Source: Chloroflexota bacterium
GTDB taxonomy: Bacteria; Chloroflexota; Anaerolineae; Promineifilales; Promineifilaceae
Direction of reading: 5' to 3'
DNA length: 64,000 bases
NCBI GenBank assembly: GCA_035444285.1
Contig: DAOMOK010000025.1
Span: 7,506-71,505, forward strand
In this document: positions 1 to 64,000 of the stretch, one piece after another
Layout of the letters: each line of letters begins with the position of its first letter
How positions within the stretch are numbered: position 1 is the first letter of the stretch
Program-made: the position numbers and the translations under genes
Notes under the pieces: generated by a model
Databases searched by the model: none
What the model was told of the DNA's origin: nothing
Seen by the model: only the letters and a program-made list of their open reading frames with translations

Positions 1-258
1 TTGGGGTCAATGCGTATTGAACTGGACGGCTGTGAACTCGTCATGCGTCCAGCTTCGCGAGCTCTATTTCTCTACTTATTACTTCATCGGCACAAATACC
101 TGCGGCGGGAAGCTCTAGCCGCTCTCTTTTGGGGCGAGAGTGACGATGCGCATGCAGGCGTTTTTGTAGCAAAAGGACAAAACTTTACGTTTGAGGACGA
201 GGCAACCAAAAGTAAGGCAGACATTCTAAGTTCAGGTGAGCTTTTCTGGCACGGTTAG
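1..258 (+). pseudogene. Remnant resembling the winged-helix N-terminus of a BTAD/SARP-type regulator
   Basis: LVMRPASRALFLYLLLHRHKYLRREALAALFWGESDDAHA parallels the N-termini of the regulators at 10552, 20056 and 27867 (e.g. KVRALLAYLAVESDRPHRRESLTALFWPE). The frame stops after 85 aa with no BTAD or ATPase part. Touches the window edge. Confidence 0.4.
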
Positions 259-394
259 CCACCTGCCTGCTGTCTACTTCTCACAACGTATTGTGGATGT
301 TGAGAACCATGGTGTATAGAGTTTTCGAGTAACACCAAACCGAGTCAATGATTTGGACTCCGGAGGATGAGATGTAAAGATGATCAGTCGGTCG

Positions 395-1399
395 TTACTG
401 CTTCTCGTCAACCATTTCAGCAACTAAAACAAAAAAATGGGGCAGGAGATGGCGCAGTGCTTCACGTCTAGCTGTCAGTTGCATAGTGGTTGCCAAACCT
501 AAGTCTGCCAACAACTGCTGGTATAGACTGGAAAAACATTTTCTTTCTACGGCCGTGGCGTCATTCTGGAAGACGAGGTTTAACAAAAAATAGGTGTGCA
601 GTATCCACTGCATGGCTTCCCGATGATGCCCCTCATCAATCATCTCTTGCGCAGCCGCGGTGTAATAAGGCAGCAGGTGGGGACGTAGTTTATACCCAAC
701 ATAGGGAATGGGGGTGCGATAGATAGCCACAGCCTGTGGGAATGCCTGGGCGACAAAGGGAAGATACCCCTCTACCTGAGAGCGTGTCATGCGGACACAG
801 CCCAATATTTGCAAAGCGTTTGTGTGAAGTTCCAGCCGTTTCTGCGCCTGCAAAATGCTCTTCATACCAATAAGCGAACGCCGGTGGGTGGGGATGTTCA
901 GACTGGCTACGGCCAGCAAGCCGCCCAGATACATCAGCGTGAAGGATAAGGCCAGGACGGTGAAATCTGGTTGGTCGAGCGTGGTTTGCACCAGTTCCTT
1001 TTCCCACTGGCAGCGCGCCTCTACCCAGCGGCGACGGCCGTACTCCCCTACTACTGCCCGCTGCACCTTCCCCAATAAGCCGGTGGGATCGGCCAGGATG
1101 TGGCCGTGCGCCAGGTGGGGCGCCAGGCGGGGGTTGGACAATACGGCCGTGACCTCATATTCCCCTGGTGTACCAAAGGCCACATCCAGCATCAGCCCCT
1201 CATACCAGACAGCCCGGTTGCCGCGTCCACCGTCCGCTAACACGATTTTTATATCCACGTCCCGATGTGCCGGAAAGTCCGCCTCAGCCGACAAACCATT
1301 CAAGCTGCCCTGTAAATGCGCGCCTATAAAACCGGGTGTCTGTGCCTCCTCGGCCGACACCCACTGCCGCGCCAATTGTGTGATTTTGTGTACCCTCAT
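395..1399 (-). CDS. Nucleotidyltransferase-domain protein (aminoglycoside/KNTase-like architecture)
   Basis: 334-aa ORF with AGGAG upstream of the ATG. GSLNG...HRDVDIKIV fits the G-S...D-x-D minimal NTase signature and is followed by a helical C-terminal half. Last gene of a co-directional cluster. Confidence 0.55.
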   Translation of the reverse strand: MRVHKITQLARQWVSAEEAQTPGFIGAHLQGSLNGLSAEADFPAHRDVDIKIVLADGGRGNRAVWYEGLMLDVAFGTPGEYEVTAVLSNPRLAPHLAHGHILADPTGLLGKVQRAVVGEYGRRRWVEARCQWEKELVQTTLDQPDFTVLALSFTLMYLGGLLAVASLNIPTHRRSLIGMKSILQAQKRLELHTNALQILGCVRMTRSQVEGYLPFVAQAFPQAVAIYRTPIPYVGYKLRPHLLPYYTAAAQEMIDEGHHREAMQWILHTYFLLNLVFQNDATAVERKCFSSLYQQLLADLGLATTMQLTARREALRHLLPHFFVLVAEMVDEKQ

Positions 1400-1403
1400 C
1401 AGC

Positions 1404-2126
1404 CTACTCCTGGTGCTGCTCTTCTTCTTCCTGTTCCACCGCTCTGGCAGAAATCAATTGCAGTTCTGCTTGTGTTAGAGCCTCCGAAAGCCAGAAGCGT
1501 TCCGCCTCATCTTCACCGGCGCGGTACAGCCAATGAGCGCTGACCGGCATGACACGGGCCGGATTAAACACCAGAATTTCATCCGAATCCCAATCCGCCC
1601 CTGACCGGTCGCCAATCGCCTCGTAGCCATGCCCCTTCACTTCCCCATGCAGCCGCGAGAGCCGTAGCCAGGCGTCGTGATAACGGGCCACTTTGCCCTT
1701 GCGTCCCCGCCCAATCGTCTGCACTCGTTGGCGGTGCGCGCGCATAAGAAGGTAGCTGCACAGGTGGATGAGTTCCTTCTGGGTTAATCGTTTGTTGGCG
1801 AGGATAGCCTGATGAAAATGGGGGCCAAGGTCGAGCAACTCCTGGCCGAATTCACGCCGCAGATGGCCAATCACTTTCCGGTCGTAGCTATCGTCCACCC
1901 ACAAGATGCGTGTACCCGGCCGTAGCTGGCAAACAATCACAAAATCTGGCGTCCACAAAGCGGCCGATTGCAGTTGTTGTGCCACATAAACGCCGCGCCC
2001 CAGCATATTGCCGTGCCCCTCATGCCCCAGGGCGAATCCCTGGCTCATAATGGCATAGGCATGACCGGTCCACGTCCCGTGATAGTAAATTTTGTCATCG
2101 TCCGTTTGCATGAGGTTTACACCCAT
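1404..2126 (-). CDS. PARP-like ADP-ribosyltransferase-fold protein
   Basis: YYHGTWTGHAYAIMSQGF...GNMLGRGVYVAQQLQSA fits the H-G-[ST]...G-F...G-x-G-[IV]-Y-[FV]-A core of PARP-type ARTs. C-terminal SDEILVFNPARV fits the catalytic-Glu strand (NEYIVY-like). The ATG overlaps the GNAT stop (TGATG). Confidence 0.55.
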   Translation of the reverse strand: MGVNLMQTDDDKIYYHGTWTGHAYAIMSQGFALGHEGHGNMLGRGVYVAQQLQSAALWTPDFVIVCQLRPGTRILWVDDSYDRKVIGHLRREFGQELLDLGPHFHQAILANKRLTQKELIHLCSYLLMRAHRQRVQTIGRGRKGKVARYHDAWLRLSRLHGEVKGHGYEAIGDRSGADWDSDEILVFNPARVMPVSAHWLYRAGEDEAERFWLSEALTQAELQLISARAVEQEEEEQHQE

Positions 2127-2608
2127 CAACGCATCTCAGCCAGTTCGACCTTCATCAAGTAGTATGGTTCCGATTCCCCGACGACGGCAAATCCCAGGCG
2201 TTCATAGAGCTGTCGGGCCGGATTCATTTTGAACACCTGGAGCGTAACCGGTTGCCGCCTGGCCCGGGCTTGCGCCAGGAGGTGGTGCAGCACGGCCGTG
2301 CCCACTCCCCGGTTTTGGTAGGTCGGCAAGATATAGATGCCTTTCAGGTATAACACATCATCCTCCTCTACCAGCGCCAGTTCGCCCACATCTTGGTCGC
2401 CTACAACGATAATCTGGCTGATACTCGGATTAAAAGAGACGGCAAAACGTTGTCGCTGCGCACCTTCATCCCAACCCCAGATCGCCTCCACGTACTTCTG
2501 CATGGTTGCCCGGCGCAATTGGTAGACAAAGTCATAATCCGATGCCGAAGCTGGACGCAATCTCACCTCTTGTGTATCCATAAGCTGCGTTACTTTTTCA
2601 ATAGACAT
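2126..2608 (-). CDS. GNAT family N-acetyltransferase
   Basis: 160 aa. Acetyl-CoA motif A is YQNRGVGTAVLHHLL, followed by NPARQLYERLGF. Confidence 0.85.
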   Translation of the reverse strand: MSIEKVTQLMDTQEVRLRPASASDYDFVYQLRRATMQKYVEAIWGWDEGAQRQRFAVSFNPSISQIIVVGDQDVGELALVEEDDVLYLKGIYILPTYQNRGVGTAVLHHLLAQARARRQPVTLQVFKMNPARQLYERLGFAVVGESEPYYLMKVELAEMR

Positions 2609-2638
2609 CTTCTTCAGACACCCTCTTCCTCTGACTCA

Positions 2639-3418
2639 TTATTTTACCCGCGCCTGGAACAACATCGTCAGATACGGTTTCAACACCTGTCCGCCGTGCT
2701 GCTGGATCGCGGTGCGGACGCCGGTAAAGAGCCGCTCGCGTGTGTCTGCCGCCAAATCTCGGTGAGCGGAATAGGTTTGTAACAGCTTAACGTAGCGTTC
2801 GGCCGTGTATGTCTCAGACCAGGCGTACTGCCGCACACTCACTGCACCAAAGCTGCCAGAAGCGCGGAAGTTTTCGGTGATGGCGCCGGTTAACCAATCG
2901 GCCGTAACGGTATTGTCCGGGTTTCGCAATTCCAGTTCGTGATATACAGCCTCAATGGCCCGCGACCACTCTGTTTGTGGGTCGGGGGTAACATTCCAGT
3001 AGAAAGCGGCCGATCCTGACTCTTTCAGGGCGGCGGCTGTTTTGGCATAACCTATCTCCGGCGGGATCCAGTGCATGGCCTCGGCGGAAATAACCAGGTC
3101 AAAGGCATTTGCTGCCAGCGGCCACTCTTCAAAGGCCACATTCACTACCTGGACGCGCGGGAAGGGGGCCAGATTGCACGCCGCCAGCGCCGCCAATTGT
3201 GGGCCGAGTTCAACGGCCGTAATGTGATAACCGCGTGTGGCGTAAGGCAGGGTGGCGTTGCCCGGCCCGCAGCCAATTTCCAGGATACGGCCGTCCGGCG
3301 GAATACCCGCCAGCGCCAGCACATCGTCAACCAACTGCGCCGGATAGCCGGGCCGGGCCTCGTTGAAGAGAGCGGCCGTTTCTTCAAATGTCGTGCGCCT
3401 GTTTCGGTCTATAGACAT
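2639..3418 (-). CDS. Class I SAM-dependent methyltransferase
   Basis: Motif I is ILEIGCGPGNATLPYA. Start moved to the internal ATG at 3418 (MSIDRNRR...), which is preceded by GGAAG. The longer track ORF has no RBS. Confidence 0.85.
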   Translation of the reverse strand: MSIDRNRRTTFEETAALFNEARPGYPAQLVDDVLALAGIPPDGRILEIGCGPGNATLPYATRGYHITAVELGPQLAALAACNLAPFPRVQVVNVAFEEWPLAANAFDLVISAEAMHWIPPEIGYAKTAAALKESGSAAFYWNVTPDPQTEWSRAIEAVYHELELRNPDNTVTADWLTGAITENFRASGSFGAVSVRQYAWSETYTAERYVKLLQTYSAHRDLAADTRERLFTGVRTAIQQHGGQVLKPYLTMLFQARVK

Positions 3419-3440
3419 CTTCACTTCCTTTTTTATTGTC

Positions 3441-3956
3441 CTATTTTGCAGCCACCTGTAAGCCAGCCCTCCATGAAAGAGCGTCGTCAAATGCGGCCTG
3501 GAAGACCTCATCCCATTCATGGTATTGCTGAGGGCGTGTCGTTACCGGTATGAACATTCGCCTTGATGTCTCATGTCTTGCAGCAAACGGCAGAATTCGA
3601 TTCACGGTACCAGCGTACAGCAACTGGCTGGCAAGTCGCGGATAGATGAAACCCGGTGCAAACGCCGGGTTCTCTGAGTGATCACACTCGACGGCGCCGA
3701 GCAGAACCGGTGAATCGATCGTGACACATGCTTCTTCGAGCAGCTCGCGTTGCAGGCAATCGAGCAGGCTCTCACCGGGCAGCACGTGACCGCCCGGAAT
3801 GGAGGCGCCCCGTCCGGCCACGTCAACCAGAATAAGCTGATCACCGGAAAAACAGAAGCAATGTACGGCCGTTACCGGCTCTGAGTACTGCCCCGGTTGC
3901 CGCACCCACCTGAGGCGAACAGGGCCGGAGGGCCAATGTACCAGGGCGCTGATCAT
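3441..3956 (-). CDS. Nudix hydrolase
   Basis: Nudix box [24 protein letters not shown] (G-x5-E-x7-REUxEE-x-GU pattern). ATGA overlap with the upstream gene. Confidence 0.85.
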
Positions 3957-4696
3957 TTGGTCTGACTGACATAGCGTTCGGCCGTGGCCACTTCCAACAC
4001 CAATTCACCCTGCTCATCGCGCCGCCAGATGGCGATGCCCAGCCACACCGCCCAGACGGGGATAAGCAGGAGAAACGGCGTTTCAATGATGGCCAGTGGT
4101 GTGACGCGGAATGCCTGCTCAAACCAGACACTGAGCGCCAGGACTCCCAAAACCATCGTCATGATGCCCAGGGCACGCCGCTCGTGCCGCAACACCGTGC
4201 CGATGCCCAGCCACCACAGGCCGCCAAAGAAAAATGCCAGCGGGCCGACACCATAAAAGACCATATTGAACCCGCTCTGGAAAACGACCAGCAGCACTTC
4301 TCGCTGCGCCTCCGAAGCGACCGCATATTCTCGCATCAACGGCGGCACCAGGCCGCCCATGAGGTTTACACCGATCATGCCCACGAGAATATGGGCGAAG
4401 CCGGCGATGGTGTACAGCGTGACCAGGGCAGGGTTACGCGGCTTGAGCCAATACCAAAGATAGAGGGCGGCCGGTGCCAGGAGCAGCGAGTAGCCAAACG
4501 TGTCCGAAACTGCCCAGGCCAGGTGGAGGTACCCGGCCGCAGGCTCTCCCAGGACGAGTACATCCGCCATATTAGACACTGCATCAGAATTGGCCCCAAT
4601 CGCCCGTGCGACCAGGACCCAGGCTGACAGGGCCACTGGCGCGGCGAGGATAGCGGTGATCGCAGCGATACGTCTGAATAAAGTTTGGTTGTTCAT
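3953..4696 (-). CDS. Polytopic membrane protein, function unknown
   Basis: 247 aa with about 7 hydrophobic segments. ATGA overlaps on both sides indicate operon membership. Confidence 0.6.
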
Positions 4697-5970
4697 GGGT
4701 TTTCTCCTTGTGAGACTATCAACCTGACCGCGTATAAAAAACGGTCTTTCGTCACCACGTACATCACGCCATTGGCTACACCTGGGGCCTTCGTACCAGG
4801 CTGCTTCTCCAGGTCGTAAGTAGCCAATAGAGCGCCGTCGCCCTTATCCAGGACGAACAGCCGGCCACTCGCACTCGCCAGATACAGATGCTGCCCGTCA
4901 ATCACGGGCGACCCCAACGGGACCCTTAACTCCGGGTCGTATTCCCACAAGGGCAACCCGTTATAGGCGTCAAGGGCCGCTACGACGCTGCTTGTGGCAT
5001 AGAGTGTGCCGGCATCTACCAGCGGAGTGGACACAATGCCCCCTGGCATACGAATTGACCACAAAAGACTACCATCCGTAGCATTCAGAGCCGATAGCCT
5101 GCGGTTCAGGCTGCCGACGTAGACGATCCCATTGCTTGCTCGTGGGGAACCGAAGACCTGACCATCCACCTGGTATTCCCACCGCAGCACGCCGTCCGCA
5201 ATGTTGATTGCGTGCAGGATGTGGTCACTTCCGGCAATGAACACAGCGCCATGGTCAACGGCCGGTGAGGAGGGAAGGGAGCCAGAACTGTCCATATCGC
5301 TCACTGGCTCGTCAAATTGGAAGCGCCACTGCAACGTCCCGTCTGTGGCGTCCAACGCATACAGGTATCCGTCCTGGCTATTCACAAAAACCAGCGTCTC
5401 ATAGACGGCAGGCTGTGAACGGACGTGCCCGCCGGTGGTGTAAGCCCAGAGCAAGGTCCCATCGAGGGCATCAACGGCGTATACATGGTGGTCTTCGCTG
5501 CCAAAGTATACTACTCCATCCGCGACTGTGGGTGTTGAAGGGGTATGCCCGTTGTGGTCGTAGCTCCAAAGGAGCGATCCGTCCCCGGCATCGAGCGCGT
5601 GCAGGCTTCCCCTCTTTCCTCCCGGAAGATCAGATGCACCGACGTAGACGACTCCATTAACGGCCGTTGCCGACGTCAACGGGGAAACCCAGTAAGGGGG
5701 TTCGCTCGCCGAACCCGGTTTGAAGGCCCAGAGCCGTTCACCGGCGGCTGTTTCCACTGTCGGCGTGGGGGCTTCTGTTGGCTCTGGTAGCAACGCGGTC
5801 GGCGGCAGATGAGCCTGGGCCGGTTCTTCCAATTCAGTCATCGGTGTGGGTTCCGGCTCTCCTGTTTTTTCAGGGATTGCCGTACCAGCCTGTGTGCAGC
5901 CAGGCGTCAAAAGCACTATCCCCAGGAGGACCATCATCGTCTGTCTGGCAAATTTGAATTGAGTATCCAT
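4693..5970 (-). CDS. PQQ-like (BamB-type) beta-propeller repeat lipoprotein
   Basis: Repeated G.VY.G..DG.L.ALDA.DG.L.W units (e.g. [45 protein letters not shown]). Signal peptide plus lipobox LLTPGC after the ATG at 5970. Confidence 0.8.
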
Positions 5971-6042
5971 GAAGTGCGTCTCCTTCGGCGAACGCTCACT
6001 CTTGATGTGCATAACCTTGTCCTATGGAACGGGACTGTTTGC

Positions 6043-6267
6043 TCAAACAAGCCCGGCTGCAAGAGCAGCGCCAATGAGCGCGCCTAAAGCGATGAACCCC
6101 AGGTTTGCCAGCGATTTCAGGCAACCGCCCGGCGGCACATCTCCTCTGGCTGGATCAAACTCCATGACTCCTGGGCGTACCATACGCCCACCCTTCATCC
6201 CAAATATCGGGATAGAGATTACCCAGGCGATTAAACCGCCTACAACTGCGCCTATAACGACTTCCAT
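6043..6267 (-). CDS. Small glycine-rich two-TM membrane protein
   Basis: Internal ATG at 6267 (MEVVIGAVVGGLIAWV...) is preceded by GAGGAG. The upstream part of the track ORF looks non-coding. Confidence 0.45.
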   Translation of the reverse strand: MEVVIGAVVGGLIAWVISIPIFGMKGGRMVRPGVMEFDPARGDVPPGGCLKSLANLGFIALGALIGAALAAGLV

Positions 6268-6301
6268 ATCTATACTCCTCGTAAATGGGACACCGTATAT
6301 G

Positions 6302-6775
6302 TCACACATGAATCCAACGATTGGCAAACTCTCCGGTGGTGCGGAACTCACTTCCGGGGACGGTGATCTGCCACATAATCCGGTAAGGGTCGCGGAAGGC
6401 AAGAGCCTCAGCGCTGTCCTCCATAATTGTTGCATCGGTGGGTAGGTGGGCGCGCACGCGGGCAATCTCATCTTCAATCATATGCAACCCGATGGCGAAG
6501 ACCTGGCCTGACGGCCTTTCGCCCTGAAACAAAGCCAGGATGAAATCTCCTTTGCGCAGGGCAACCATGCCTGGTGTGATGCCGGCCGCTTCGGCATCAT
6601 CCCAGCTTTTGTCAAAGGGCTTGTCCTGAGCGGCGTCGAAGGACAGCGTATACCACAGGCCATCGTCTAACAGCACCTCACGGCCGATCAACTGCATCTC
6701 GAACAACGGCCGGTAATACGCCTCGGCCGTGCGCAAGTCAGGGACGACCAGGGCGATGTGTCGTATGCTGGTCAT
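6302..6775 (-). CDS. VOC (glyoxalase/bleomycin-resistance/dioxygenase) family protein
   Basis: MTSIRHIALVVPDLRTAEAYYRPLFEM is a typical VOC N-terminus. AGGAGG lies upstream of the ATG at 6775. Confidence 0.8.
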   Translation of the reverse strand: MTSIRHIALVVPDLRTAEAYYRPLFEMQLIGREVLLDDGLWYTLSFDAAQDKPFDKSWDDAEAAGITPGMVALRKGDFILALFQGERPSGQVFAIGLHMIEDEIARVRAHLPTDATIMEDSAEALAFRDPYRIMWQITVPGSEFRTTGEFANRWIHV

Positions 6776-56188: not shown

Positions 56189-57319
56189 TTACTGCTTAAA
56201 CACCAGCAGCGGATCAACCTGGTTCAGGCGGTAGATGGGCAGCAGGGCAGCCAGGATGGTCATGAGAACGGCCAGCGTGCCTGCCTGGGCGACTGTGCCG
56301 GGCCGGATGACGATGTTAAACTGGGGCCAGATGGCCATAATCAGGGCTGCGGCCGCGTAAGCCAACCCAATTCCCACGACGAAACCCATGACCGCCCGGT
56401 AGAGCGTTTCGGCCGTAACCAGCCAGGCCAGGCGGCGACCCCCCACGCCTATCGCTTTCAACACGCCATACTCGCGCATCTGGTCGGTCACGGCCGTGTA
56501 TGCCGTCAGTCCCATCACCGCCACGCCAATCACCACACCAATGAAAATCATAACGTTGAGCGGTGTAGCCATCACCGTGGCCAAAACCCGTTGGTCGGCG
56601 GCAGCAATATCGGCCGGCGTCAGGGCGGCGATGCCCGGCACCTCTCTCTCAATGATCGTGATCGCCGCTGCAGGGTTAACTCCTTCCGGCAGGCGCAGCA
56701 GGTGATAGCTAACCATGTTGTTCAGGCCCAGGGCGGAGGCGGCCGCATCTAGCGAAATGAAGACGTAGGGACTCATCCAGGAGGCAGTTTCTCGCGTCAA
56801 CCCCACCACGGTGAACGCCTGACCTAACACGTCTACCGTATCACCCACGGCGATACCGTTGCGCTGCGCCAGCCAGGTATCCAGCAATATCTCGCTGTTG
56901 GCTGTGCTGCTGGGGCCAACGTCCAGGCCCCGCCCCTGGCCGATGTTCCAGGGGCTGCCGAAGGTAGTAGCCGGATCGTAACCCACCAGTAACACCGGCG
57001 TTTTGGTCCCTTTACGGGTGAAGATGATCCCGGCTACGATGATATGTCCGGCTTCGGCGGCGTTAACGGCCGTGGCCGCCTGGTCGTGCAGCCCCAGAGG
57101 AACGACGGAATCGGACGTAAACATGCCCTGGGTTCCGCTTTGAGCCACAATCAAGTCTGCACCGACGTTGTTCACGAAGGCGGCCAGGGTGGCGTACAAC
57201 CCCTCGCGGAAACCGAGCAGGAGCAAGATCAGCGCCAGCGCCGCGGCCACACCGGCTACACTCAGGGCCAGTTTGCCCTTTTCGTGAAACAAATTGCGTC
57301 GCGTCAGGGGCACACTCAT
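56189..57319 (-). CDS. FtsX-like ABC transporter permease (second copy)
   Basis: Same architecture, with EYGVLKAIGVGGRRLA. Start at MSVPLTRRNLF (57319), after GAGGAGG. Confidence 0.85.
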   Translation of the reverse strand: MSVPLTRRNLFHEKGKLALSVAGVAAALALILLLLGFREGLYATLAAFVNNVGADLIVAQSGTQGMFTSDSVVPLGLHDQAATAVNAAEAGHIIVAGIIFTRKGTKTPVLLVGYDPATTFGSPWNIGQGRGLDVGPSSTANSEILLDTWLAQRNGIAVGDTVDVLGQAFTVVGLTRETASWMSPYVFISLDAAASALGLNNMVSYHLLRLPEGVNPAAAITIIEREVPGIAALTPADIAAADQRVLATVMATPLNVMIFIGVVIGVAVMGLTAYTAVTDQMREYGVLKAIGVGGRRLAWLVTAETLYRAVMGFVVGIGLAYAAAALIMAIWPQFNIVIRPGTVAQAGTLAVLMTILAALLPIYRLNQVDPLLVFKQ

Positions 57320-57666
57320 GCTTCGGTCCTCCTCACCATCCAGACAACAGGTAATGGTTTGATTGTTCTCCTTTACACGGCTACAGCGTAGCACGGGAAC
57401 GCCCGCCACAGAAAGCGCCATACGACCTGTTCGGCCATAGGTGAAATCGCCTACAAACACCCTGAGCCTGCCCAAACAGATGTTTAGCAAAAGTTACATT
57501 TCCGTTGCCCCGGAACGGATGTTCCACTATAATCTCCTGGCGTTAAGGGCGCAACCTGTCTGCGGAAAGGGATTATCCCACCTGATGACAATCTTATAAC
57601 CAATTCAGACGATTTTCTTTTGACCTGTTCAGCAGACAGCAGGACCATATACAAAAGGAGATCGGC

Positions 57667-59409
57667 ATGTCTACTCAACTCCCCCCTAATCCCAATCTTA
57701 TCTATTTGAAGAAACAGGCTAAGACCTTGCATAAACAACTGAAGGCTGGCGAACCAACGGCCGTCGCGCGCGGCCGGCAATCCCACCCCCAAGGCGCAAA
57801 TCTAACCGCACCCAAATTAAGCGATGCCCAACTGGTTATTGCCCGTGAGCATGGTTTTGCCAGTTGGCCCAGGCTAAAGCGCTATATCGAGGAGATACAC
57901 GGCCGTCCCCTTCACCGGGTTTTTGAAACGGACATGGACTATTATGAGGGGCGGGCCTTTGGCCTGCACAGCGTTTACCAGACCGGGCAACCACGAGCCT
58001 TAAACCTGATCCGCCAGTCCCACCCCCGTTTTGCTGCTGCCAGTGACGAGGCCATCAAACAAGCCGACTTTACGCTGGATGATGCCCGGTTGGTATTGGC
58101 ACGTGAACATGGTTTTGCCGATTGGCCAGCCCTGGCCGTCCACGTGGAGCGGCTGGCGCAAGGCCAGGTCGTAGAGCCGTTCCGCGTCGCTTTTCAAGCC
58201 ATCAAAGCCAATGAGTTGGATGCCTTCAAACAAACTCTGGCTGACTATCCCGAACTGGCTACGACCCCAGGTACTAACGGCAATGGGCTGCTGCACCTGG
58301 CGGCCGATTTTGGGCGGGTAGAGATGGTCAGGCTGCTCCTGGACGCTGGGGCCGGCATCAATATGGCCAATAATAAGGGTTGGACGCTGCTCCACATAGC
58401 TGCCTGCGCCTCAGCCGATGGGCTGCCCGGCGGGCCGGAAATGCTGGCCACGTTTATTGATTGGCTCCTGACTGCCGGCGCGGATGTCACGGCCGAAGCG
58501 CACGGCGCGGGCGGCACGCCCCTGATGCAGGCACTCTTTTGGGGGCGTCGTCTACAGGCTGAACGATTGGCCCAAGAAGGCATTTACCCCTACAATTTAC
58601 GCGCAGTTGCCGGTCTGGGGCGTCTCGATCTCCTGCCAGACTTCTTCAAAGCAGATGGCTTACTGAAGCCTGAGGCCGGACAAAAGCGAGAATTTCACCG
58701 CCCGCACTCTGGCTTTCCGCCCTGGACGCCTCACGATGACCGGCAAGAGATTGTGGATGAAGCGTTGGTCTATGCGGCTAAGAGCGGCCGTATCCAAGCT
58801 CTGGCCTATCTCCTTAACCGAGGGGCTAACCTGGACGGCGAACCCTACAACGGCACGGCACTCTTCTGGGCCGTCTCCTGTGAACAGACAGAAACGGTGC
58901 GCTGGCTGTTGGAGCATGGCGCCGATGTTCATCAAATAGCCAGCTTTGGCAGCGAGAAAAAAATCACGGTGCTGCATATCGCGGCCTGGGGTGGACATTT
59001 GGTGCCGGCTCAAGTGCTGCTGCAATTTGGCGCGGAGGCCACCTACCATGAACCTCGCTATGGCAGTTCTGCTGTTGGTTGGGCTGCTCATATGGGCCAC
59101 CACCAATTGCGCGACTATTTGCTGGAACATGCTCCCCTTAGTCTTGACGATGCCGCTTTTTACGGCCGTCTACAACGGGTAAAGGCGTTGATCGAAGCCA
59201 ACCCCACGCTGGTAAATGGGGCGGATGGCAAGGGTACTCCCTTACGTCATGCGGCCGCGGCCGGGCGCCTGGCTATCGTAACGTATCTGCTAGACAAAGG
59301 GGCCGACCGTACCCTTCCCGGTGATGATAGCAAGATCGCTATGGACTATGCCAGGGAGAACAGTCATCAGGCCGTTGTTGATCTTTTGCAAGACGAAGCG
59401 GCAGCTTAA
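57667..59409 (+). CDS. Ankyrin-repeat protein
   Basis: Multiple G..LLH.AA..G....V..LL..GAD units (e.g. GNGLLHLAADFGRVEMVRLLLDAGAGIN, GTPLRHAAAAGRLAIVTYLLDKGAD). AAGGAG RBS. Confidence 0.85.
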   Translation: MSTQLPPNPNLIYLKKQAKTLHKQLKAGEPTAVARGRQSHPQGANLTAPKLSDAQLVIAREHGFASWPRLKRYIEEIHGRPLHRVFETDMDYYEGRAFGLHSVYQTGQPRALNLIRQSHPRFAAASDEAIKQADFTLDDARLVLAREHGFADWPALAVHVERLAQGQVVEPFRVAFQAIKANELDAFKQTLADYPELATTPGTNGNGLLHLAADFGRVEMVRLLLDAGAGINMANNKGWTLLHIAACASADGLPGGPEMLATFIDWLLTAGADVTAEAHGAGGTPLMQALFWGRRLQAERLAQEGIYPYNLRAVAGLGRLDLLPDFFKADGLLKPEAGQKREFHRPHSGFPPWTPHDDRQEIVDEALVYAAKSGRIQALAYLLNRGANLDGEPYNGTALFWAVSCEQTETVRWLLEHGADVHQIASFGSEKKITVLHIAAWGGHLVPAQVLLQFGAEATYHEPRYGSSAVGWAAHMGHHQLRDYLLEHAPLSLDDAAFYGRLQRVKALIEANPTLVNGADGKGTPLRHAAAAGRLAIVTYLLDKGADRTLPGDDSKIAMDYARENSHQAVVDLLQDEAAA

Positions 59410-59410
59410 C

Positions 59411-59659
59411 TTCTCGCCCGATGACATTGGCGAAATCCTGGCCCTGCGCGACCGGGGTGAAGCCCCCTGCCGGGTGGTGTTGGACTTGCTGGTCCACAAA
59501 GCGGACGAAGTGCGCTGGCGCATCGTCGAACTGGAACGGCTGGAAAAGGAGCTGCGCCAGTTGCACCGGCTTGGCCAGACCTTCCCCACCGATGACGTAG
59601 ACGGCAAGCACTGCGTTTGCCATCTGGTCAGCCAGCAGGCCGGCCGGGAGAAGAACTGA
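59411..59659 (+). pseudogene. MerR-family metal-sensor C-terminal fragment (no HTH)
   Basis: NFSPDDIGEILALRDRGEAPCRVVLDLLVHKADEVRWRIVELERLEKELRQL...KHCVCH covers the dimerisation helix and a Cys-containing metal loop. It begins exactly at the ankyrin gene stop. Confidence 0.6.
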
Positions 59660-59816
59660 AACATCACCAGCGCCGGGCCCGCTACTTCAAGGTTACCTCC
59701 CCCTGTCTGATCACGGGTACAGGCAACTGCCCCCGCAGCCAGAAACGCCATTAGCAAAACGAACCCAAACTGTAATTTCATCTGGTTCCCTCCAAATTGT
59801 GCGTTCGTGGTTTTAC

Positions 59817-60302
59817 TCATGGTTGCGTCTGCGCCGTTTGTTCCCATTGAGCTTCCCGCAGCTCTGCCGGCCAGCTACGCTTGATGTAAGCCAGCACTGC
59901 CAGCATCTCTGCCTCGGTAAGAATATCATCGTAGGCCGGCATGTTGCTGCTACCGCCAATGTTCGCCGGCAAACGCGCACCGCCCAATCGAATCGCCTCA
60001 ATCAGCACACTATCGCTGTGGTGCCACGTGTGCCCGCTGGCGTCGTGTGGCGGCGCGCGAAAAGATCCATCTTCGTTCGGGCTTTTCCACTCTGGTTCGC
60101 CTTCCAGTTCGGCCCCATGGCAGGCAGCGCAATACTCTACATAAACCTGCTGTCCCAGGGCAATGGCATCTGGGCTTAAGGTGGGCGCCGGCGGGAGAGG
60201 CGTTGCCTGGCGATCGCCACTGCCCACAACGAGGTTGCCGCTGCTCTGGCAGGCTGCCAGTAACGCAGACCAGGCAAAAAACAGTAAAAGATACTTTTTC
60301 AA
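59817..60302 (-). CDS. Monohaem c-type cytochrome lipoprotein
   Basis: Lipobox LLAACQ, then CAACHG, followed by a Met-containing distal segment. Confidence 0.8.
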   Translation of the reverse strand: MKKYLLLFFAWSALLAACQSSGNLVVGSGDRQATPLPPAPTLSPDAIALGQQVYVEYCAACHGAELEGEPEWKSPNEDGSFRAPPHDASGHTWHHSDSVLIEAIRLGGARLPANIGGSSNMPAYDDILTEAEMLAVLAYIKRSWPAELREAQWEQTAQTQP

Positions 60303-60563
60303 GGCGCTCTCCTTCGTGAACTCCAGACATGTACCTTATGATTGGGTTTAGCAGTGCACTGCTAAACCCAATACTTCTCACACTCACCAATACGGCCATA
60401 CCCTGGCGTAGCCTGTGTATAGTGATCGTATGTCTGGTTGCTTTTAGGCGGTGGGGCTGCGTCCGGTGGTGAGAGATAAATAATTTTATACTGTTAATGA
60501 AATTCACCAAACTCAGCGGCGTTTAGAAAGACGCCTTTTGAAATTTTGGAAAGGAACCCAAAC

Positions 60564-62858
60564 ATGTTCAAGTTACACTTCGCTTTTCTGATAACAATTT
60601 CCTTTTCACTGGCCGCTTGTGTGCCGGCTGACGCGACCAGGGATTCGTCTGAGGTGGGGGCGACAGGACCGGCGACAACGGCCGTTTCCTCCACCACGCC
60701 GCCGCTACCCACCCAAACGGCCGATCAATCCCCCATAGACACCCTCATCGCCTCCCTCACCGCTGCTGGCGCCGCCGTTGTCAATAACGGCCGTAGCGGA
60801 CAAGGCCTCTTCCCAGTCGAAGGCATCGGTCTCTGGCATCTCACCGTTAACGATACCAACGTCAACGTTTACGAATTCAGCGATGTGGCCGCCCGCGACG
60901 CTGTCAGTAGCAGCATCTCGCCGAGAGGTGATGAGTACACCGTCACCGAAGGGGGCGCCACGGTGACAACCACCTGGGATGGTGAAGGTCTATCGCGCTG
61001 GTGGGCCGCAGATAATTCACTGGTACACTATTCAGGAGCGGATACGGCCGTTTCCACCCTCCTTACCACCGTCCTTGGCCCACCCTTTGCCGATGGTTCC
61101 CAACCCTACCGCCCCGAAGCAGGCAGCGGCGTGATTGCCGGCGTCAGCGAATACGGCGTTAGCTTCCAGTACGATCCCTACCTGGCCGCCGGTATTCAGG
61201 CGCAGATAGTAGATGCTTTTACCGAGGATGGCGGCATGAATTACTTACTGGTACCCCAACACCTCTCCTTCACCTTCCCCAACAGCTACGCTGACGCTGA
61301 TCCGCTCTACCAGCAGCGGTGGCAGCTCAACCTGGAGACGATGCCGCAGATTGCAGTTTACCCGGCGGCTGCCTATTCAGCCATGCACGACCTGGCCAGG
61401 AGACAGATCGAACAGTTGCAGGCCCTGTTAGCGGCACGGCCGTCTACCCCTGGCGGTACACTGCCTTACCTGCCGCTGATCAATTCTGCTCAGGACTTCC
61501 ACAGCCAGGTGGCCTACCTGGCATTCGCCAACGGCGCCGGCGTGCGCTACGTGACCGCATTTTCCCAGGACTCGTCCCCCGTGACCAACCAACGCCTGAT
61601 TTATACCTTCCAGGGATTGACGGCCGATGGGCAGTATTATGTGGCGGCCTTTTTCCCGGTGACGACGGCCGTTCTGCCAGACACGTTCCAGGTAGACGAT
61701 TGGGAAGCCTTTAGTCTCAATTATGCGACCTATGTGGCGGAGACGAAAGCGGTGCTAAACGACTTGACGCCGCCTGGCTTTGCGCCTGACTTAAGACTGC
61801 TGGATGCGGTCGTGACCTCTTTGCGAGTAGAGCCAGACGTGGAATTAAGTGGGGTCGAAACGGCCGTGCCTCCTGACGAGCGTGTGCTGATAGCGCCGGC
61901 CGGTGTGTACCAGGTCTATGACAATGACAACGGCCAGTATCGCCTTTACCGTGTGGCGATGGACGGCCGTCTCCATCAGGTGACCGAGCAGCGCTACCCC
62001 CTCTTGCCCGCGCCCGATGCGGCCCGCGCCGTTTACCTAGACGACGAGCGCCGCCTCTGGCTGGTTGACCTGGCCAGTGGCAGTGAAAGGCAACTGGCTG
62101 CGGACATTACCCTTTCCTGGCTGCATGTGTGGGGAGATGCCCATACGTTGCTATTAGGTGTCTATCTTTCGGCCGCGGAAGGCGAAGGTCCCTCTATTGG
62201 GCACGTGGCCATGCTAGACATAGATAGCGGCGAACTCCAAATAATCGAAGAGGAATACCTCTCTCTGGGACGACCGGCAATGGCTTCCGATGGGCAATCC
62301 GTTGCTTACGACATCTCGGCTTTTTCTGCTGATGAAGTCAACGGCCGCATCTACCGGCCTGACGGCGGCTCGCAGCCGTTGGACCAGGCCCTTTTTCATG
62401 GCCTGGAGGGGGAGCCAGCATGCAACCTCTATAACCCCGCTTGGTCGCCAGATGGCAGGCAGCTGGCCTGGTTGTGCAGCGCGGCAGCCGGCTCTCGCCT
62501 GGTCGTGTTCGATCTGATCCGGCAAACCGCTATGACCGTGTTCACCTGGCAGCCGGCCCAGTTCGGCGCTTTGCCGCCCTCACCCGTGTGGAGTATTGAC
62601 GGGAAATGGCTGGCGATTGAAATTTGGGCCAAAAATGAAGACGAATCGGGCCTGTGGGTCTTGCCGGCCGACGGCACCATGGCCCGGTTGCACGTACCGA
62701 CCGGTCGCGAACCTATCTGGTTGAATTCGTCACAATTGTTTTACACCGACGTAGACGAAAATATGAGCGGCGTCATTAAGCTGTTTGACCTGAATTACGG
62801 CGAGATAGGCGTACTGGATTTGCCGGCAGGCAGCACATTGTTGCTGGCATCTTATTGA
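60564..62858 (+). CDS. Secreted lipoprotein with C-terminal TolB/PD40-like beta-propeller repeats
   Basis: Signal peptide plus lipobox SLAAC. YNPAWSPDGRQLAWL and PVWSIDGKWLAIE are PD40-type repeats. Confidence 0.65.
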   Translation: MFKLHFAFLITISFSLAACVPADATRDSSEVGATGPATTAVSSTTPPLPTQTADQSPIDTLIASLTAAGAAVVNNGRSGQGLFPVEGIGLWHLTVNDTNVNVYEFSDVAARDAVSSSISPRGDEYTVTEGGATVTTTWDGEGLSRWWAADNSLVHYSGADTAVSTLLTTVLGPPFADGSQPYRPEAGSGVIAGVSEYGVSFQYDPYLAAGIQAQIVDAFTEDGGMNYLLVPQHLSFTFPNSYADADPLYQQRWQLNLETMPQIAVYPAAAYSAMHDLARRQIEQLQALLAARPSTPGGTLPYLPLINSAQDFHSQVAYLAFANGAGVRYVTAFSQDSSPVTNQRLIYTFQGLTADGQYYVAAFFPVTTAVLPDTFQVDDWEAFSLNYATYVAETKAVLNDLTPPGFAPDLRLLDAVVTSLRVEPDVELSGVETAVPPDERVLIAPAGVYQVYDNDNGQYRLYRVAMDGRLHQVTEQRYPLLPAPDAARAVYLDDERRLWLVDLASGSERQLAADITLSWLHVWGDAHTLLLGVYLSAAEGEGPSIGHVAMLDIDSGELQIIEEEYLSLGRPAMASDGQSVAYDISAFSADEVNGRIYRPDGGSQPLDQALFHGLEGEPACNLYNPAWSPDGRQLAWLCSAAAGSRLVVFDLIRQTAMTVFTWQPAQFGALPPSPVWSIDGKWLAIEIWAKNEDESGLWVLPADGTMARLHVPTGREPIWLNSSQLFYTDVDENMSGVIKLFDLNYGEIGVLDLPAGSTLLLASY

Positions 62859-63124
62859 TGCTGTTGGGAGGATAAAGCTATCATAGTCTGCTTCCTGAAT
62901 CAGTGGACCAACACTACGACAGGCGACGAAAAGCCTGGTCCGGCGGCCAAAGCCGCATCACCACCAACGCAAGCTCACCAGGCAGTTTCTCGGCGCCCTT
63001 GCCGGAACGATCAGCAATCCGGTGGTTCATACGCTAAATGGCCTATGGAATAGCGCGATATTTGGCGCTTACGGGGAGACCGGTTTTTCGATTAAGGTAG
63101 TGAATAACGCTGTACAGGGGATAG

Positions 63125-63454
63125 ATGATGACGGAACTGCTGACGCTAAACCAACCGGCTATCGAAGCCGTTAACAGAGTTACCCGGCTGCTGGCACAGA
63201 CCGGCTTAGAGGTGTGGCGCTCATTTGACCTGCGGGCGGCACTGGCAGCCGACACGCCCTGTACCTGCCCCCATCACGCCGGCAACTGTGATTGTGATAT
63301 GGTGGTGCTGTTAGTGTATGGAGAGGAACGCCGGCCGGCGACCGTGGTGGCGCATAGCCACAACGGCCGTACCTGGCTGTCACTGGCTGATGGGCCGGAG
63401 GAACGGCCGTCGCCAAACCTGAGTCACCGCATTATGGCGGCTCTGGCACCTTAA
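63125..63454 (+). CDS. Small cytoplasmic Cys/His-rich protein, function unknown
   Basis: 109 aa. CTCPHHAGNCDCDMVVLLVYG cluster. Lies inside the copper/redox neighbourhood. Confidence 0.5.
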   Translation: MMTELLTLNQPAIEAVNRVTRLLAQTGLEVWRSFDLRAALAADTPCTCPHHAGNCDCDMVVLLVYGEERRPATVVAHSHNGRTWLSLADGPEERPSPNLSHRIMAALAP

Positions 63455-63522
63455 ACGAAAACGGCCGTCACGCTCAGCATCAGGTGGCGTAACGGCCGTT
63501 TCTCAAATGGTCGGCGTTGCGC

Positions 63523-63963
63523 TTAGGGCGCTTTCACTACCAGCGTTCCAACCATACCCGCCTCTTTGTGGCCTGCTACCGTGCAGACAAACTCATACTC
63601 ACCCGGTTCAGACGGGACAAATTCAATCATATTCCTGCTTCCGGCGGCAGCAGCCACATGGATGTCCGGTTCTGCGCTCATGTGGCCCATATCATGGCCT
63701 GCCATTACTTCATGGTCAACCACTACTTCGCCAGTGTGGGGCATTTCCATGATGCTGAAATCATGCTCTAAGACGCCTTCGTTTTGCAGCGTTAGCCTCA
63801 CCGGTTGCCCCGCCTGCGCTTCCAGCCGGGTATTGTCAAAGGCAATATCAGTAGCCTTCAGGGTGAATTCAGTCCGAGGTACAAGCGATGGCTCGGCCGT
63901 GGAGCTACACGCGGTTAATACGGCCGCCACAATAACCAATAAGCAAAGTGCCACTTTTTTCAT
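63523..63963 (-). CDS. Plastocyanin/azurin-like type-1 copper lipoprotein
   Basis: Lipobox LTACSS. Ligand pattern H...C-x2-x-H-x4-M within EHDFSI...YEFVCTVAGHKEAGMVGTLVV. Confidence 0.85.
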   Translation of the reverse strand: MKKVALCLLVIVAAVLTACSSTAEPSLVPRTEFTLKATDIAFDNTRLEAQAGQPVRLTLQNEGVLEHDFSIMEMPHTGEVVVDHEVMAGHDMGHMSAEPDIHVAAAAGSRNMIEFVPSEPGEYEFVCTVAGHKEAGMVGTLVVKAP

Positions 63964-64000
63964 TCCGTTTCTTCCTCATAGCGATAAATGTTAGTCGGGC

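Follow-up and report, generated by a model that had tools for sequence, protein, structure and literature searches.

We analyzed a 64,000-nucleotide stretch of DNA (hereafter the window) from a Chloroflexota bacterium of the family Promineifilaceae (contig DAOMOK010000025.1, positions 7,506 to 71,505) and found that one 8-bp palindrome, ACGGCCGT, is about 50 times more frequent than chance in this genome and its relatives. The word shows every sequence-level property that we tested of the highly iterated palindromes (HIPs) described in cyanobacteria (Elhai 2015, PMC4390886; Xu et al. 2018, PMC5861425). On balance, with a confidence only a little better than even, we regard it as a HIP-type element that tags the DNA of a Chloroflexota lineage genome-wide. 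The lineage carrying the word includes the Promineifilaceae (Candidatus Leptofilum) together with metagenome-assembled genomes (MAGs) labelled Ardenticatenaceae or Anaerolineae. A first-pass annotation, made by eye from the window, had already read the element as resembling HIP1, the best-known cyanobacterial case, and the tests described here support that reading. The proteins of the window correspond to HRQ41564-HRQ41589 of an NCBI third-party-annotated MAG, 'Chloroflexota bacterium'.

An exact count gave 85 copies of ACGGCCGT, the figure that had been estimated by eye, among them those at 549-556, 20305-20312 and 63461-63468. This amounts to 1.33 copies per kb (1328 per Mb), or about one per 750 bases. 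The GC content of the window is 57.2%, lower than the roughly 60% first given. One hundred dinucleotide-preserving shuffles of the window held on average 1.31 copies and at most 5, and Markov models of order 0, 1, 2, 3 and 4 predicted 1.6, 1.31, 2.7, 4.4 and 10.2 copies, respectively. The ratio of observed to expected copies (O/E) is 53-65 at orders 0-1 and, with the motif left unmasked, 8, 2.7 and 1.3 at orders 4, 5 and 6, respectively. The ratios near 1 at orders 5-6 are circular, because the motif itself supplies the 6- and 7-mer counts; the window has 113 ACGGCCG heptamers, and 85 of them lie inside ACGGCCGT. We therefore rejected high-order models as a refutation and used masked backgrounds and an external control instead. 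With the motif masked, models of orders 2-4 predict 2.1-2.8 copies (O/E 30-41), and masking every octamer that contains the core leaves 1.6 expected (O/E 52). Applied to 1.22 Mb from 80 unrelated genomes, the same core-masked model gave an O/E of 0.95 for ACGGCCGT, which validates it. The first-pass annotation had expected about two copies and a tens-fold excess, and we obtained expectations of 1.3-2.8 and ratios of about 30-65. The ratio near 1 that it had named as a possible refutation did not emerge, the values staying at 30-52 with masked backgrounds. ACGGCCGT is by far the commonest 8-mer of the window; the next palindromic 8-mer has 13 copies, and the other top 8-mers overlap the motif. 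HIP1 ranges from 500 to 2500 copies per Mb (Elhai 2015, PMC4390886), with a reported excess of 15-300-fold (Elhai 2015, PMC4390886; Xu et al. 2018, PMC5861425). Like HIP1, ACGGCCGT is the most abundant short, GC-rich palindromic 8-mer, with a density inside this range and an O/E of at least 15.

The copies are independent octamers. Their flanks carry at most 0.25 bit of information at any position, the most similar pair of flanks agrees at 17 of 28 bases, and beyond the octamer there is only a weak preference for A at -1 (44%) and T at +8 (40%). Extension of the word to a 10-mer, which had been noticed by eye, is real: AACGGCCGTT makes up 18 of the 85 copies in the window. Spacing is near-exponential, with a coefficient of variation of 1.09 and no regular period. 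Such dispersed, independent copies outside any longer repeat are typical of HIP1-type elements. We also considered the possibility that the copies belong to one longer repeat, such as a repetitive extragenic palindromic (REP) sequence or a miniature inverted-repeat transposable element (MITE), which the first-pass annotation had suggested checking. The information content of the flanks rules this out. REP and MITE sequences are extragenic, imperfect palindromes of 20-40 nt or more, whereas 81 of the 85 copies are genic and nothing is conserved past 8-10 nt. Rfam and tRNA scans of the window found nothing.

Departures from the word are concentrated at its ends. The window contains 73 one-mismatch variants, of which 59 differ at the outer positions (about 19 expected) and 14 at the inner six (about 26 expected). 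The variants named in the first-pass annotation, which it put at roughly 50, total 47 (TCGGCCGT 17, GCGGCCGT 11, ACGGCCGA 10 and ACGGCCGC 9). Pooling 351 kb of DNA from genomes that carry the word, with 669 copies of ACGGCCGT, gave the same picture: changes at positions 1 and 8 have an O/E of 2.0 (C), 4.1 (G) and 5.0 (T), and changes at positions 2-7 range from 0.23 to 1.3, with 99 observed vs 136 expected. When both outer bases are right the O/E is 52-63, when one is right it is about 4, and for the bare CGGCCG core it is about 1.8. The unit is therefore a symmetric octamer, strict in its CGGCCG core and more tolerant at the outer contacts. This bias of deviations to the first and last base is also a mark of HIP1-type elements; deviations from HIP1 itself show the same strict-core, soft-outer pattern (Elhai 2015, PMC4390886). 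The share of copies extended to AACGGCCGTT is 6-29% in genomes of 54-59% GC, the window included, and 35-79% in lower-GC carriers (47-52%; L142, L135, L241, L213 and L210, where L-numbers denote comparison loci or contigs that we retrieved). In these lower-GC relatives, the iterated unit is effectively the 10-mer.

We used a gene set derived from a codon-usage model and corrected by the genes called on an identical public contig. Copies had been reported both between genes and in genes on either strand, and we count 4 intergenic, 42 in plus-strand genes and 39 in minus-strand genes. The genic copies are distributed over phases 0, 1 and 2 as 53, 23 and 5. Shuffling codon order yields expectations of 1.7, 0.48 and 0.11, respectively (enrichment of about 31-, 48- and 47-fold), and a synonymous shuffle that keeps the proteins and per-gene codon pools yields just 10.6, 1.7 and 0.2. 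Intergenic DNA (8.1 kb, 51% GC) has 4 copies vs 0.13 expected, an O/E of about 30. ACGGCCGT is thus enriched in all three frames and in non-coding DNA, as HIP1-type elements are. Because the enrichment is about 30-50-fold in every frame and in intergenic DNA, the phase bias, which the first-pass annotation had correctly seen, is a reflection of codon and amino-acid usage and no special property of the element.

The word leaves its imprint on proteins. Thr-Ala-Val is the most over-represented tripeptide in the window (54 vs 9.6 expected), and 53 of these 54 are encoded with ACG-GCC, one of 16 possible Thr-Ala codon pairs, for which codon usage outside the motif predicts 15%. Similarly, of 28 [N/H/D/Y]-Gly-Arg tripeptides, 23 have the coding sequence nAC-GGC-CGT. 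Protein composition follows the DNA word, which overrides codon choice and even amino-acid sequence. Origin at the protein level or from codon bias is rejected by the frame, synonymous-shuffle and codon-choice tests. The densest gene of the window, 20056-23439(+), has 11 copies (3.25 per kb); ten of them read ACG-GCC-GTN, as first described, and the peptides listed at the time are exact. An exact look-up of its product, a 1127-aa regulator, gave no record.

The word is spread across a clade. We compared the window with loci retrieved through its beta-CASP protein, an ABC ATPase and a ladder of DinG helicase matches. The ladder started from L168, a contig whose DinG is 88% identical to that of 'Candidatus Leptofilum sp.', which NCBI taxonomy places in Chloroflexota; Ardenticatenia; Promineifilales; Promineifilaceae. 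L168 came from a homology-free scan of metagenomes for three clustered copies, which yielded numerous contigs whose dispersed copies, with the triggering cluster discounted, amount to 1.2-2.6 per kb. The loci are as follows:

L082/L083: beta-CASP protein 87% identical, GC 55.5-55.8%, 0.73-0.78 copies of ACGGCCGT per kb
L084/L085: beta-CASP 80% identical, GC 57-59%, 1.1-1.3 per kb
L086/L087: beta-CASP 73% identical, GC 56%, 1.25-1.3 per kb
L088/L089, GCA_016178765.1 (Chloroflexi bacterium): beta-CASP 67% identical, GC 54%, 0 copies
L240, GCA_023382655.1 ('Anaerolineae bacterium'): nearest named relative by ABC ATPase (84%), GC 54%, 1.16 per kb
L210, closed 6.36 Mb 'Candidatus Leptofilum sp.': DinG ladder, GC 52%, 1.40 per kb
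L211, 'Ardenticatenaceae' MAG GCA_020634245.1: DinG ladder, GC 54%, 1.23 per kb
L213, cluster named 'Anaerolineales': DinG ladder, GC 47%, 1.49 per kb
L241, 3.49 Mb contig: DinG ladder, GC 48.5%, 0.96 per kb
L212, Promineifilaceae MAG GCA_046259695.1: DinG ladder, GC 57%, 0.40 per kb
L001-L080, 80 genomes of other phyla: negative control, GC various, 0.024 per kb

The last set came from a beta-CASP profile search of genome contigs, with no Chloroflexota among the matches listed, and serves only as a negative control. Close relatives have 0.73-1.34 copies per kb, and nearly all sampled carriers have about 1.0-1.5 per kb regardless of GC content (47-60%). A density so nearly constant, at about 1 per kb over this range, suggests a set-point tied to function and not an equilibrium of mutation. 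By extrapolation, some 8,000-9,000 copies would be present in a genome of 6.36 Mb. Housekeeping loci of other genomes, near the genes for DinG, MutL, MutS, FabF and Ccm, are just as rich in the word, and since the loci compared come from independent assemblies (short-read, MAG and closed long-read), the pattern is not an assembly artefact. In L213, 34 of 40 CGGCCG hexamers lie inside ACGGCCGT. L088/L089, where the octamer is absent, avoids the hexamer itself (3 observed vs 19.6 expected in 21 kb). The word is therefore clade-wide with exceptions, as HIP1 is.

Phage and plasmid-like DNA carries the word as well. A clustered-copy scan of IMG/VR recovered contigs with dispersed copies at 1-3.5 per kb. 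In one of them, L231 (IMGVR_UViG_3300048592_001391), a Mu-like phage region at 1-13620 has 48 copies in 13.6 kb (3.5 per kb), a density above that of every chromosomal locus sampled, and the copies also lie inside Mu-like genes. The annotated genes of this region are:

4608-6416: LigT and Mu-like prophage I (Mu-like_Pro)
7249-8178: Mu F
8178-9494: portal
9496-10845: large terminase

Plasmid-like contigs with FtsK and ParA (L216/L220) or with an actin-like segregation protein, ALP (L229/L238), have 2.3-3.5 copies per kb. What holds from these contigs is that replicons of this lineage carry the word and do not avoid it, which argues against the word as an effective restriction target in these hosts. 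Elsewhere in metagenomes, the octamer also occurs within a degenerate 12-bp tandem satellite, (TACACGGCCGTG)n, where it reaches 5-18 per kb on unrelated contigs of 47-62% GC. This satellite is seen at L138 3596-6064, in L126, L103, L144 and L143, and in other Ga0056108/133-135, Ga0209459 and Ga0209259 contigs. We set it aside as a different phenomenon.

Within chromosomes, DNA that appears to be foreign is poor in copies. The two largest gaps in the window coincide with mobile DNA, and a toxin gene beside the densest gene is empty as well:

19351-20049, plus strand: AbiEii toxin gene, GC 46%, no ACGGCCGT and no CGGCCG, adjoining gene 20056-23439
23659-27380, unstranded: 3.7-kb motif desert with 0 copies; split ISL3-family transposase and low-GC small genes, read as recently acquired
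36321-41052, unstranded: 4.7-kb motif desert with 0 copies; Tn3-family transposase and phage-integrase fragment, read as recently acquired

Taking the window and four related loci together, and defining mobile genes by annotation (transposase, integrase, reverse transcriptase or toxin), we found 2 copies in 9.8 kb of mobile genes vs 174 in 130 kb elsewhere (Poisson P = 2e-4). Under-representation in horizontally acquired DNA is a further HIP1-type property, yet the Mu-like phage and the plasmid-like contigs do carry ACGGCCGT. Several features of the mobile DNA itself can be recorded. The ISL3-family transposase lies in a lower-GC segment as two overlapping open reading frames (ORFs), 25553-26227(-) and 26221-26823(-), separated by frameshift or decay. 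The Tn3-family transposase, 36001-38904(-), is intact (967 aa, DUF4158 and DDE_Tnp_Tn3) and contains one copy of ACGGCCGT; an identical transposase occurs in a second MAG (HUM67233.1), and a truncated tyrosine-recombinase (phage-integrase) fragment, 39169-39717(-), adjoins it. In L240, a gene for an RVT_1 reverse transcriptase at 1-1950 has 39% GC in a carrier of 54% GC and no copy of the motif.

The first-pass annotation had suggested aligning orthologs in search of directional substitution. In codon alignments there are no indels at the sites, and the copies are written into resident DNA by point substitution, not insertion. Gains often changed the protein: NFT to NGR, VAL to TAV, DGQ to DGR, KDH to NGR and LDR to NGR. 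Once present, sites persist above background. In three genome pairs (20-30 sites each, with shadow ORFs removed), 36-67% of motif sites are conserved vs 10-27% of phase-matched 8-mers, or 2-4 times background, so that, in these small samples, ACGGCCGT sites are more conserved than control octamers, as HIP1 sites are. Four-fold codons inside the motif also tend toward higher conservation than those outside, again in small samples, and two sites in DinG are common to four of five genomes at about 65% nucleotide identity. At sites without a shared copy, the counterpart octamer in the ortholog departs from the word by 3.6 nt on average, vs 2.4 in control octamers (P = 4e-7), and only 3 of 36 are a single mismatch away. 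These all-or-none states, together with the scarcity of inner one-off variants, imply that near-cognate sequences are short-lived, and we read them as directional creation followed by maintenance. Examples from the copper P-type ATPase and beta-CASP genes show how sites come and go between relatives:

45573-45580, copper ATPase: shared with the L084 ortholog (VDGRA)
46084-46091, copper ATPase: shared with the L084 and L086 orthologs (VTAVT)
46404-46411, copper ATPase: shared with L086, absent in L084 (DGR vs EGQ)
46627-46634, copper ATPase: shared with L086, absent in L084 (TAV vs TTV)
53339-53346, beta-CASP (NGR): shared with L082 and L084, absent in L086 (NDH) and in motif-less L088 (KDH)

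HIP1 has been known since the mid-1990s, and its function is debated, with biased repair, nucleoid structure and a DNA-uptake tag as candidates. The cyanobacterial word, GCGATCGC, reportedly goes back to Robinson et al. in 1995. Like it, ACGGCCGT is an 8-bp palindrome rich in GC and the most frequent 8-mer of its genome, and its roughly 1000-1500 copies per Mb and tens-fold O/E fall in the HIP1 ranges. Both words occur as dispersed, independent copies in all frames and in non-coding DNA, at sites conserved above control octamers. Both deviate at the first or last base, so that a 6-bp core remains, itself a classical type II site, and both have lineage-specific 10-mer extensions and a clade-wide distribution in which some member genomes are poor. 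They differ in core, as the first-pass annotation had stated: HIP1 has CGATCG with an internal GATC, whereas ACGGCCGT has CGGCCG, a site of the EagI/Eco52I type without GATC. The hosts also differ, being Cyanobacteria in one case and Chloroflexota in the other, and two cognate orphan methyltransferases are known for HIP1, whereas the window and the retrieved loci hold no counterpart. HIP1 proper is not at issue, as GCGATCGC occurs once in the window vs 1.6 expected and the host belongs to the Chloroflexota.

The phenomenon is not bound to one sequence. Alternate cyanobacterial HIPs include GGGATCCC, TCGATCGA, GGCGCC, rCCGGy and GCsGC (Elhai 2015, PMC4390886), and ACGGCCGT is not among them. 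In these systems the hyper-abundant word contains a methyltransferase target that is avoided in other genomes, a parallel to the avoidance of CGGCCG in L088. All are cyanobacterial, however, and most are confined to one or two strains, whereas ACGGCCGT is found in many genomes of differing GC content. Every genome carrying HIP1 or an alternate HIP has a methyltransferase for its word (Elhai 2015, PMC4390886). A search of the literature on ACGGCCGT, AACGGCCGTT, CGGCCG methyltransferases and Chloroflexi, as well as on palindromes or methylation motifs in Promineifilum, Ardenticatena and Leptofilum, returned only primers and coincidental operator sites and no prior description, a result that is limited to open-access texts and is not proof of absence. 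This agrees with the remark in the first-pass annotation that no description of the motif was known. ACGGCCGT is apparently an undescribed counterpart of HIP1 outside the cyanobacteria.

How might such a tag work? We propose that the symmetric site of 8-10 bp is read by a dimeric, sequence-specific protein of the lineage, for which CGGCCG would be essential and the outer A and T a weaker contact. The reader would most probably be, as HIP1 and the alternate HIPs suggest by analogy, an orphan DNA methyltransferase of EagI-type (CGGCCG) or longer specificity. The tag would be kept at a working density and would mark resident DNA for some DNA transaction, candidates being strand discrimination in repair and the acceptance or recombination of incoming, self-like DNA. 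Near-cognate sequences would be driven quickly to the full word, giving the all-or-none, attractor-like pattern.

Several observations weigh against a HIP-type tag. Searching six frames of the window and all retrieved loci for methyltransferase (m5C, N4 and N6) and Vsr motifs, we found no DNA methyltransferase, Vsr-type nuclease or restriction genes. The sole DPPY/NPPY hits fell in L209, from a different lineage (71% GC), and in L162, which belongs to a different repeat class; motif-carrying loci had none. In the pooled 351 kb, the deamination (C-to-T) neighbours ATGGCCGT, ACGGTCGT and ACGGCTGT with their complements have O/E values of 0.92, 0.99 and 1.30, next to 0.23-1.05 for transversion neighbours, and thus lack the specific depletion that very-short-patch repair predicts. 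Moreover, the phage and plasmid-like contigs were found through clusters of the word, so that their very high densities are partly an effect of ascertainment, and the ortholog statistics rest on 20-30 sites per pair from a copper-resistance island that may itself be mobile. Finally, the function of HIP1 is itself unsettled, and likeness to HIP1 therefore fixes the phenomenology of ACGGCCGT but not its biochemistry.

The same evidence can be read in other ways. One possibility, which we think unlikely, is that ACGGCCGT is an uptake or recombination-enhancing sequence like the DNA uptake sequence (DUS) of Neisseria or the uptake signal sequence (USS) of Pasteurellaceae such as Haemophilus, spread by molecular drive through biased uptake and homologous recombination, with no need for methylation. 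A competence receptor or recombination factor would then favor DNA bearing the word. At about one per 0.7-1 kb, it has the same density as DUS and USS, and like them it is genic at some protein cost, scarce in recent acquisitions such as transposable elements, and lineage-specific. Its clade-wide occurrence independent of GC, the conservation of some sites and the gain of others at the expense of amino acids, and the tolerance of one-off variants at weak positions only would all fit, and recent preprints propose this role for HIP1. However, DUS and USS are asymmetric, oriented words of 9-12 nt, often in inverted pairs at terminators, and none is an 8-bp palindrome, whereas ACGGCCGT is a perfect palindrome and 95% genic. 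Their function has been shown by uptake assays and a known receptor, and we know of no such uptake system in Chloroflexota; the retrieved DNA held no competence genes. The Mu-like phage contig, at 3.5 copies per kb, is not obviously explained by chromosomal recombinational drive either, and if uptake were methylation-dependent this explanation would overlap with a HIP-type tag. It is rather improbable that the word is a functionless by-product of biased mismatch repair, in which an m5C methyltransferase of CGGCCG type and a very-short-patch-like nuclease over-correct near-cognates with no selection on the word itself. Dcm and Vsr act in this way, although more weakly, on CCWGG in E. coli, where a methyltransferase-linked repair nuclease biases substitutions toward the methylated word. 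The scarcity of inner near-cognates despite a source of 669 copies (99 vs 136 expected), the all-or-none orthologous states and the equal enrichment in all frames and in non-coding DNA are what such a process would leave, and the avoidance of CGGCCG in a related genome shows that hexamer-reading enzymes act on the group. Yet transition neighbours are no more depleted than transversion ones, so that the deficit of T:G deamination neighbours typical of Vsr/Dcm is absent; Dcm/Vsr concerns a 5-mer with a modest excess, nowhere near the roughly 50-fold excess of this octamer. A purely mutational equilibrium should also follow composition, whereas density is near-constant over 47-60% GC, and sites are conserved 2-4 times above background, a feature that in HIP1 was taken as evidence for selection over replenishment (Xu et al. 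2018, PMC5861425).

We find it very improbable that ACGGCCGT is the binding site of an abundant nucleoid-associated or chromosome-organizing protein, or a Chi-like protection against a helicase-nuclease that, being a palindrome, could be read both ways. Symmetric recognition with a strict core would suit such a protein, the word reaches or exceeds host density in phages and plasmid-like replicons, as if these needed protection or compaction, and a nucleoid role was favored for HIP1 (Xu et al. 2018, PMC5861425). Against this, the near-random spacing in the window shows no period, and no candidate protein has been identified. Known Chi sites, moreover, are asymmetric and skewed with respect to strand and replication, and a palindrome cannot be strand-skewed. 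The last alternative, that the copies are pieces of a longer dispersed repeat (REP, MITE or satellite) or a product of protein selection or codon bias in TPR-type domains, is refuted. It could point to the densest gene, which encodes a TPR-rich regulator with paralogs in the window, and to the octamer's occurrence in a 12-bp satellite elsewhere. The flanks are too unlike (0.25 bit or less, best pair 17/28), 95% of copies lie in genes of many unrelated families on both strands, enrichment extends to three frames, intergenic DNA and comparisons with synonymous shuffles, nearly every TAV uses one of the 16 available codon pairs, and the word is as dense in the housekeeping loci of other genomes.

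We give even chances to a broader form of the HIP-type proposal: that this is a second, independently evolved HIP system outside the cyanobacteria, a selected self-tag of an order-level lineage (Promineifilales with its neighbours, among them filaments abundant in wastewater) kept at roughly one copy per 0.7-1 kb whatever the composition, rewriting proteins and copied by phages and plasmids. If so, hyper-iterated palindromes would be a convergent, general solution to some DNA transaction, such as methyl-directed repair or recognition of self DNA, and the 30-year-old question of what HIP1 is for could be addressed by comparing two unrelated phyla. Because the HIPs in the literature we searched are all cyanobacterial, correlations among them are confounded by shared ancestry; an element that behaves in the same way with a different core in an unrelated phylum is an independent replicate of HIP1. 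Features that co-occur with the word in both phyla, such as an orphan methyltransferase, a nicking nuclease or competence and pilus genes, would be prime candidates for the mechanism. The word is also a sharp compositional marker (1.3 per kb vs 0.02 in other phyla) that could aid contig binning, help assign phages and plasmids to Promineifilaceae-like hosts and reveal DNA acquired recently. It inflates Thr-Ala-Val and Asn/Asp-Gly-Arg and thus matters for analyses of protein evolution in this lineage, and since an EagI site forms its core, cutting by EagI-type enzymes, or protection from it, would be unusually frequent in these genomes.

All copies of ACGGCCGT in the window are given below, with coordinates from the exact count and phases from the corrected gene set. 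Being palindromic, the copies are unstranded; strands refer to the genes.

549-556: phase 0 (Thr-Ala-Val), ORF 395-1399(-)
1034-1041: phase 1 (x-Gly-Arg), ORF 395-1399(-)
1143-1150: phase 0, ORF 395-1399(-)
2292-2299: phase 0, ORF 2126-2608(-)
3213-3220: phase 0, ORF 2639-3520(-)
3287-3294: phase 1, ORF 2639-3520(-)
3865-3872: intergenic
5660-5667: phase 0, ORF 4693-6012(-)
7160-7167: phase 0, ORF 6796-7629(-)
8310-8317: phase 1, ORF 7992-8402(-)
9623-9630: phase 0, ORF 9286-10200(-)
10067-10074: phase 0, ORF 9286-10200(-)
10432-10439: phase 2, ORF 10241-10447(-)
11859-11866: phase 2, ORF 10552-13581(+)
11965-11972: phase 0, ORF 10552-13581(+)
14603-14610: phase 1, ORF 13820-18802(-)
14991-14998: phase 0, ORF 13820-18802(-)
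15291-15298: phase 0, ORF 13820-18802(-)
17385-17392: phase 0, ORF 13820-18802(-)
17430-17437: phase 0, ORF 13820-18802(-)
18582-18589: phase 0, ORF 13820-18802(-)
18708-18715: phase 0, ORF 13820-18802(-)
20248-20255: phase 0 (STAVYN), ORF 20056-23439(+)
20305-20312: phase 0 (KTAVFN), ORF 20056-23439(+)
20344-20351: phase 0 (DTAVLQ), ORF 20056-23439(+)
20734-20741: phase 0 (TTAVYH), ORF 20056-23439(+)
21358-21365: phase 0 (ETAVAD), ORF 20056-23439(+)
21704-21711: phase 1 (ANGRYS), ORF 20056-23439(+)
21847-21854: phase 0 (QTAVAH), ORF 20056-23439(+)
22099-22106: phase 0 (ATAVAA), ORF 20056-23439(+)
22822-22829: phase 0 (LTAVLD), ORF 20056-23439(+)
23050-23057: phase 0 (ATAVYG), ORF 20056-23439(+)
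23185-23192: phase 0 (ETAVAH), ORF 20056-23439(+)
23651-23658: phase 1, ORF 23585-24064(-)
27381-27388: phase 0, ORF 27344-27706(-)
27486-27493: phase 0, ORF 27344-27706(-)
27740-27747: intergenic
27916-27923: phase 1, ORF 27801-31094(+)
28758-28765: phase 0, ORF 27801-31094(+)
28854-28861: phase 0, ORF 27801-31094(+)
30087-30094: phase 0, ORF 27801-31094(+)
30288-30295: phase 0, ORF 27801-31094(+)
30928-30935: phase 1, ORF 27801-31094(+)
32066-32073: phase 0, ORF 31670-32887(+)
32604-32611: phase 1, ORF 31670-32887(+)
33665-33672: phase 0, ORF 32888-34189(+)
33872-33879: phase 0, ORF 32888-34189(+)
33940-33947: phase 2, ORF 32888-34189(+)
34944-34951: phase 0, ORF 34746-35609(+)
35113-35120: phase 1, ORF 34746-35609(+)
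36313-36320: phase 1, single copy of the Tn3 transposase gene 36001-38904(-)
41053-41060: phase 0, ORF 40978-41292(+)
41119-41126: phase 0, ORF 40978-41292(+)
42349-42356: phase 1, ORF 41977-42618(-)
42753-42760: phase 0, ORF 42635-43129(-)
43678-43685: phase 1, ORF 43126-43782(-)
43724-43731: phase 0, ORF 43126-43782(-)
44394-44401: phase 1, ORF 44274-44570(-)
45573-45580: phase 1, copper P-type ATPase gene 44961-47672(-)
46084-46091: phase 0, copper ATPase gene 44961-47672(-)
46404-46411: phase 1, copper ATPase gene 44961-47672(-)
46627-46634: phase 0, copper ATPase gene 44961-47672(-)
47721-47728: phase 0, ORF 47669-47893(-)
48183-48190: phase 0, ORF 48066-49526(+)
48771-48778: phase 0, ORF 48066-49526(+)
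51411-51418: phase 0, ORF 51263-51793(-)
53339-53346: phase 1 (NGR), beta-CASP gene 52028-53416(-)
54823-54830: phase 1, ABC ATPase gene 54244-55032(-)
54971-54978: phase 0, ABC ATPase gene 54244-55032(-)
56490-56497: phase 0, ORF 56189-57319(-)
57066-57073: phase 0, ORF 56189-57319(-)
57757-57764: phase 0, ankyrin gene 57667-59409(+)
57899-57906: phase 1, ankyrin gene 57667-59409(+)
59162-59169: phase 1, ankyrin gene 57667-59409(+)
60678-60685: phase 0, ORF 60546-62858(+)
60787-60794: phase 1, ORF 60546-62858(+)
61044-61051: phase 0, ORF 60546-62858(+)
61436-61443: phase 2, ORF 60546-62858(+)
61665-61672: phase 0, ORF 60546-62858(+)
61860-61867: phase 0, ORF 60546-62858(+)
61963-61970: phase 1, ORF 60546-62858(+)
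63363-63370: phase 1, ORF 63125-63454(+)
63403-63410: phase 2, ORF 63125-63454(+)
63461-63468: intergenic
63492-63499: intergenic

Some of the genes in this list belong to recognizable groups. The ORFs 10552-13581(+), 20056-23439(+) and 27801-31094(+) encode large, paralogous signal-transduction regulators with BTAD, NB-ARC/AAA_16 (STAND) and TPR domains. After this cluster, a TPR/ATPase ORF, 31670-32887(+), abuts an ORF with TPR and a LuxR-type HTH, 32888-34189(+), and the two may be one split gene. The 1660-aa product of 13820-18802(-), with 7 copies of the motif in its gene, is a predicted surface protein with Big_9, cadherin-like, NHL and DUF11 domains. The region 44961-60302, syntenic in L084 and L086, is a copper- or metal-resistance island that includes a YHS/HMA P-type ATPase, cupredoxin-domain proteins, a MerR regulator, MgtC, a MacB-type ABC exporter and a beta-CASP/RMMBL metallo-hydrolase. 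This last, RNase-J-like enzyme also accompanies the metal-island genes in relatives.

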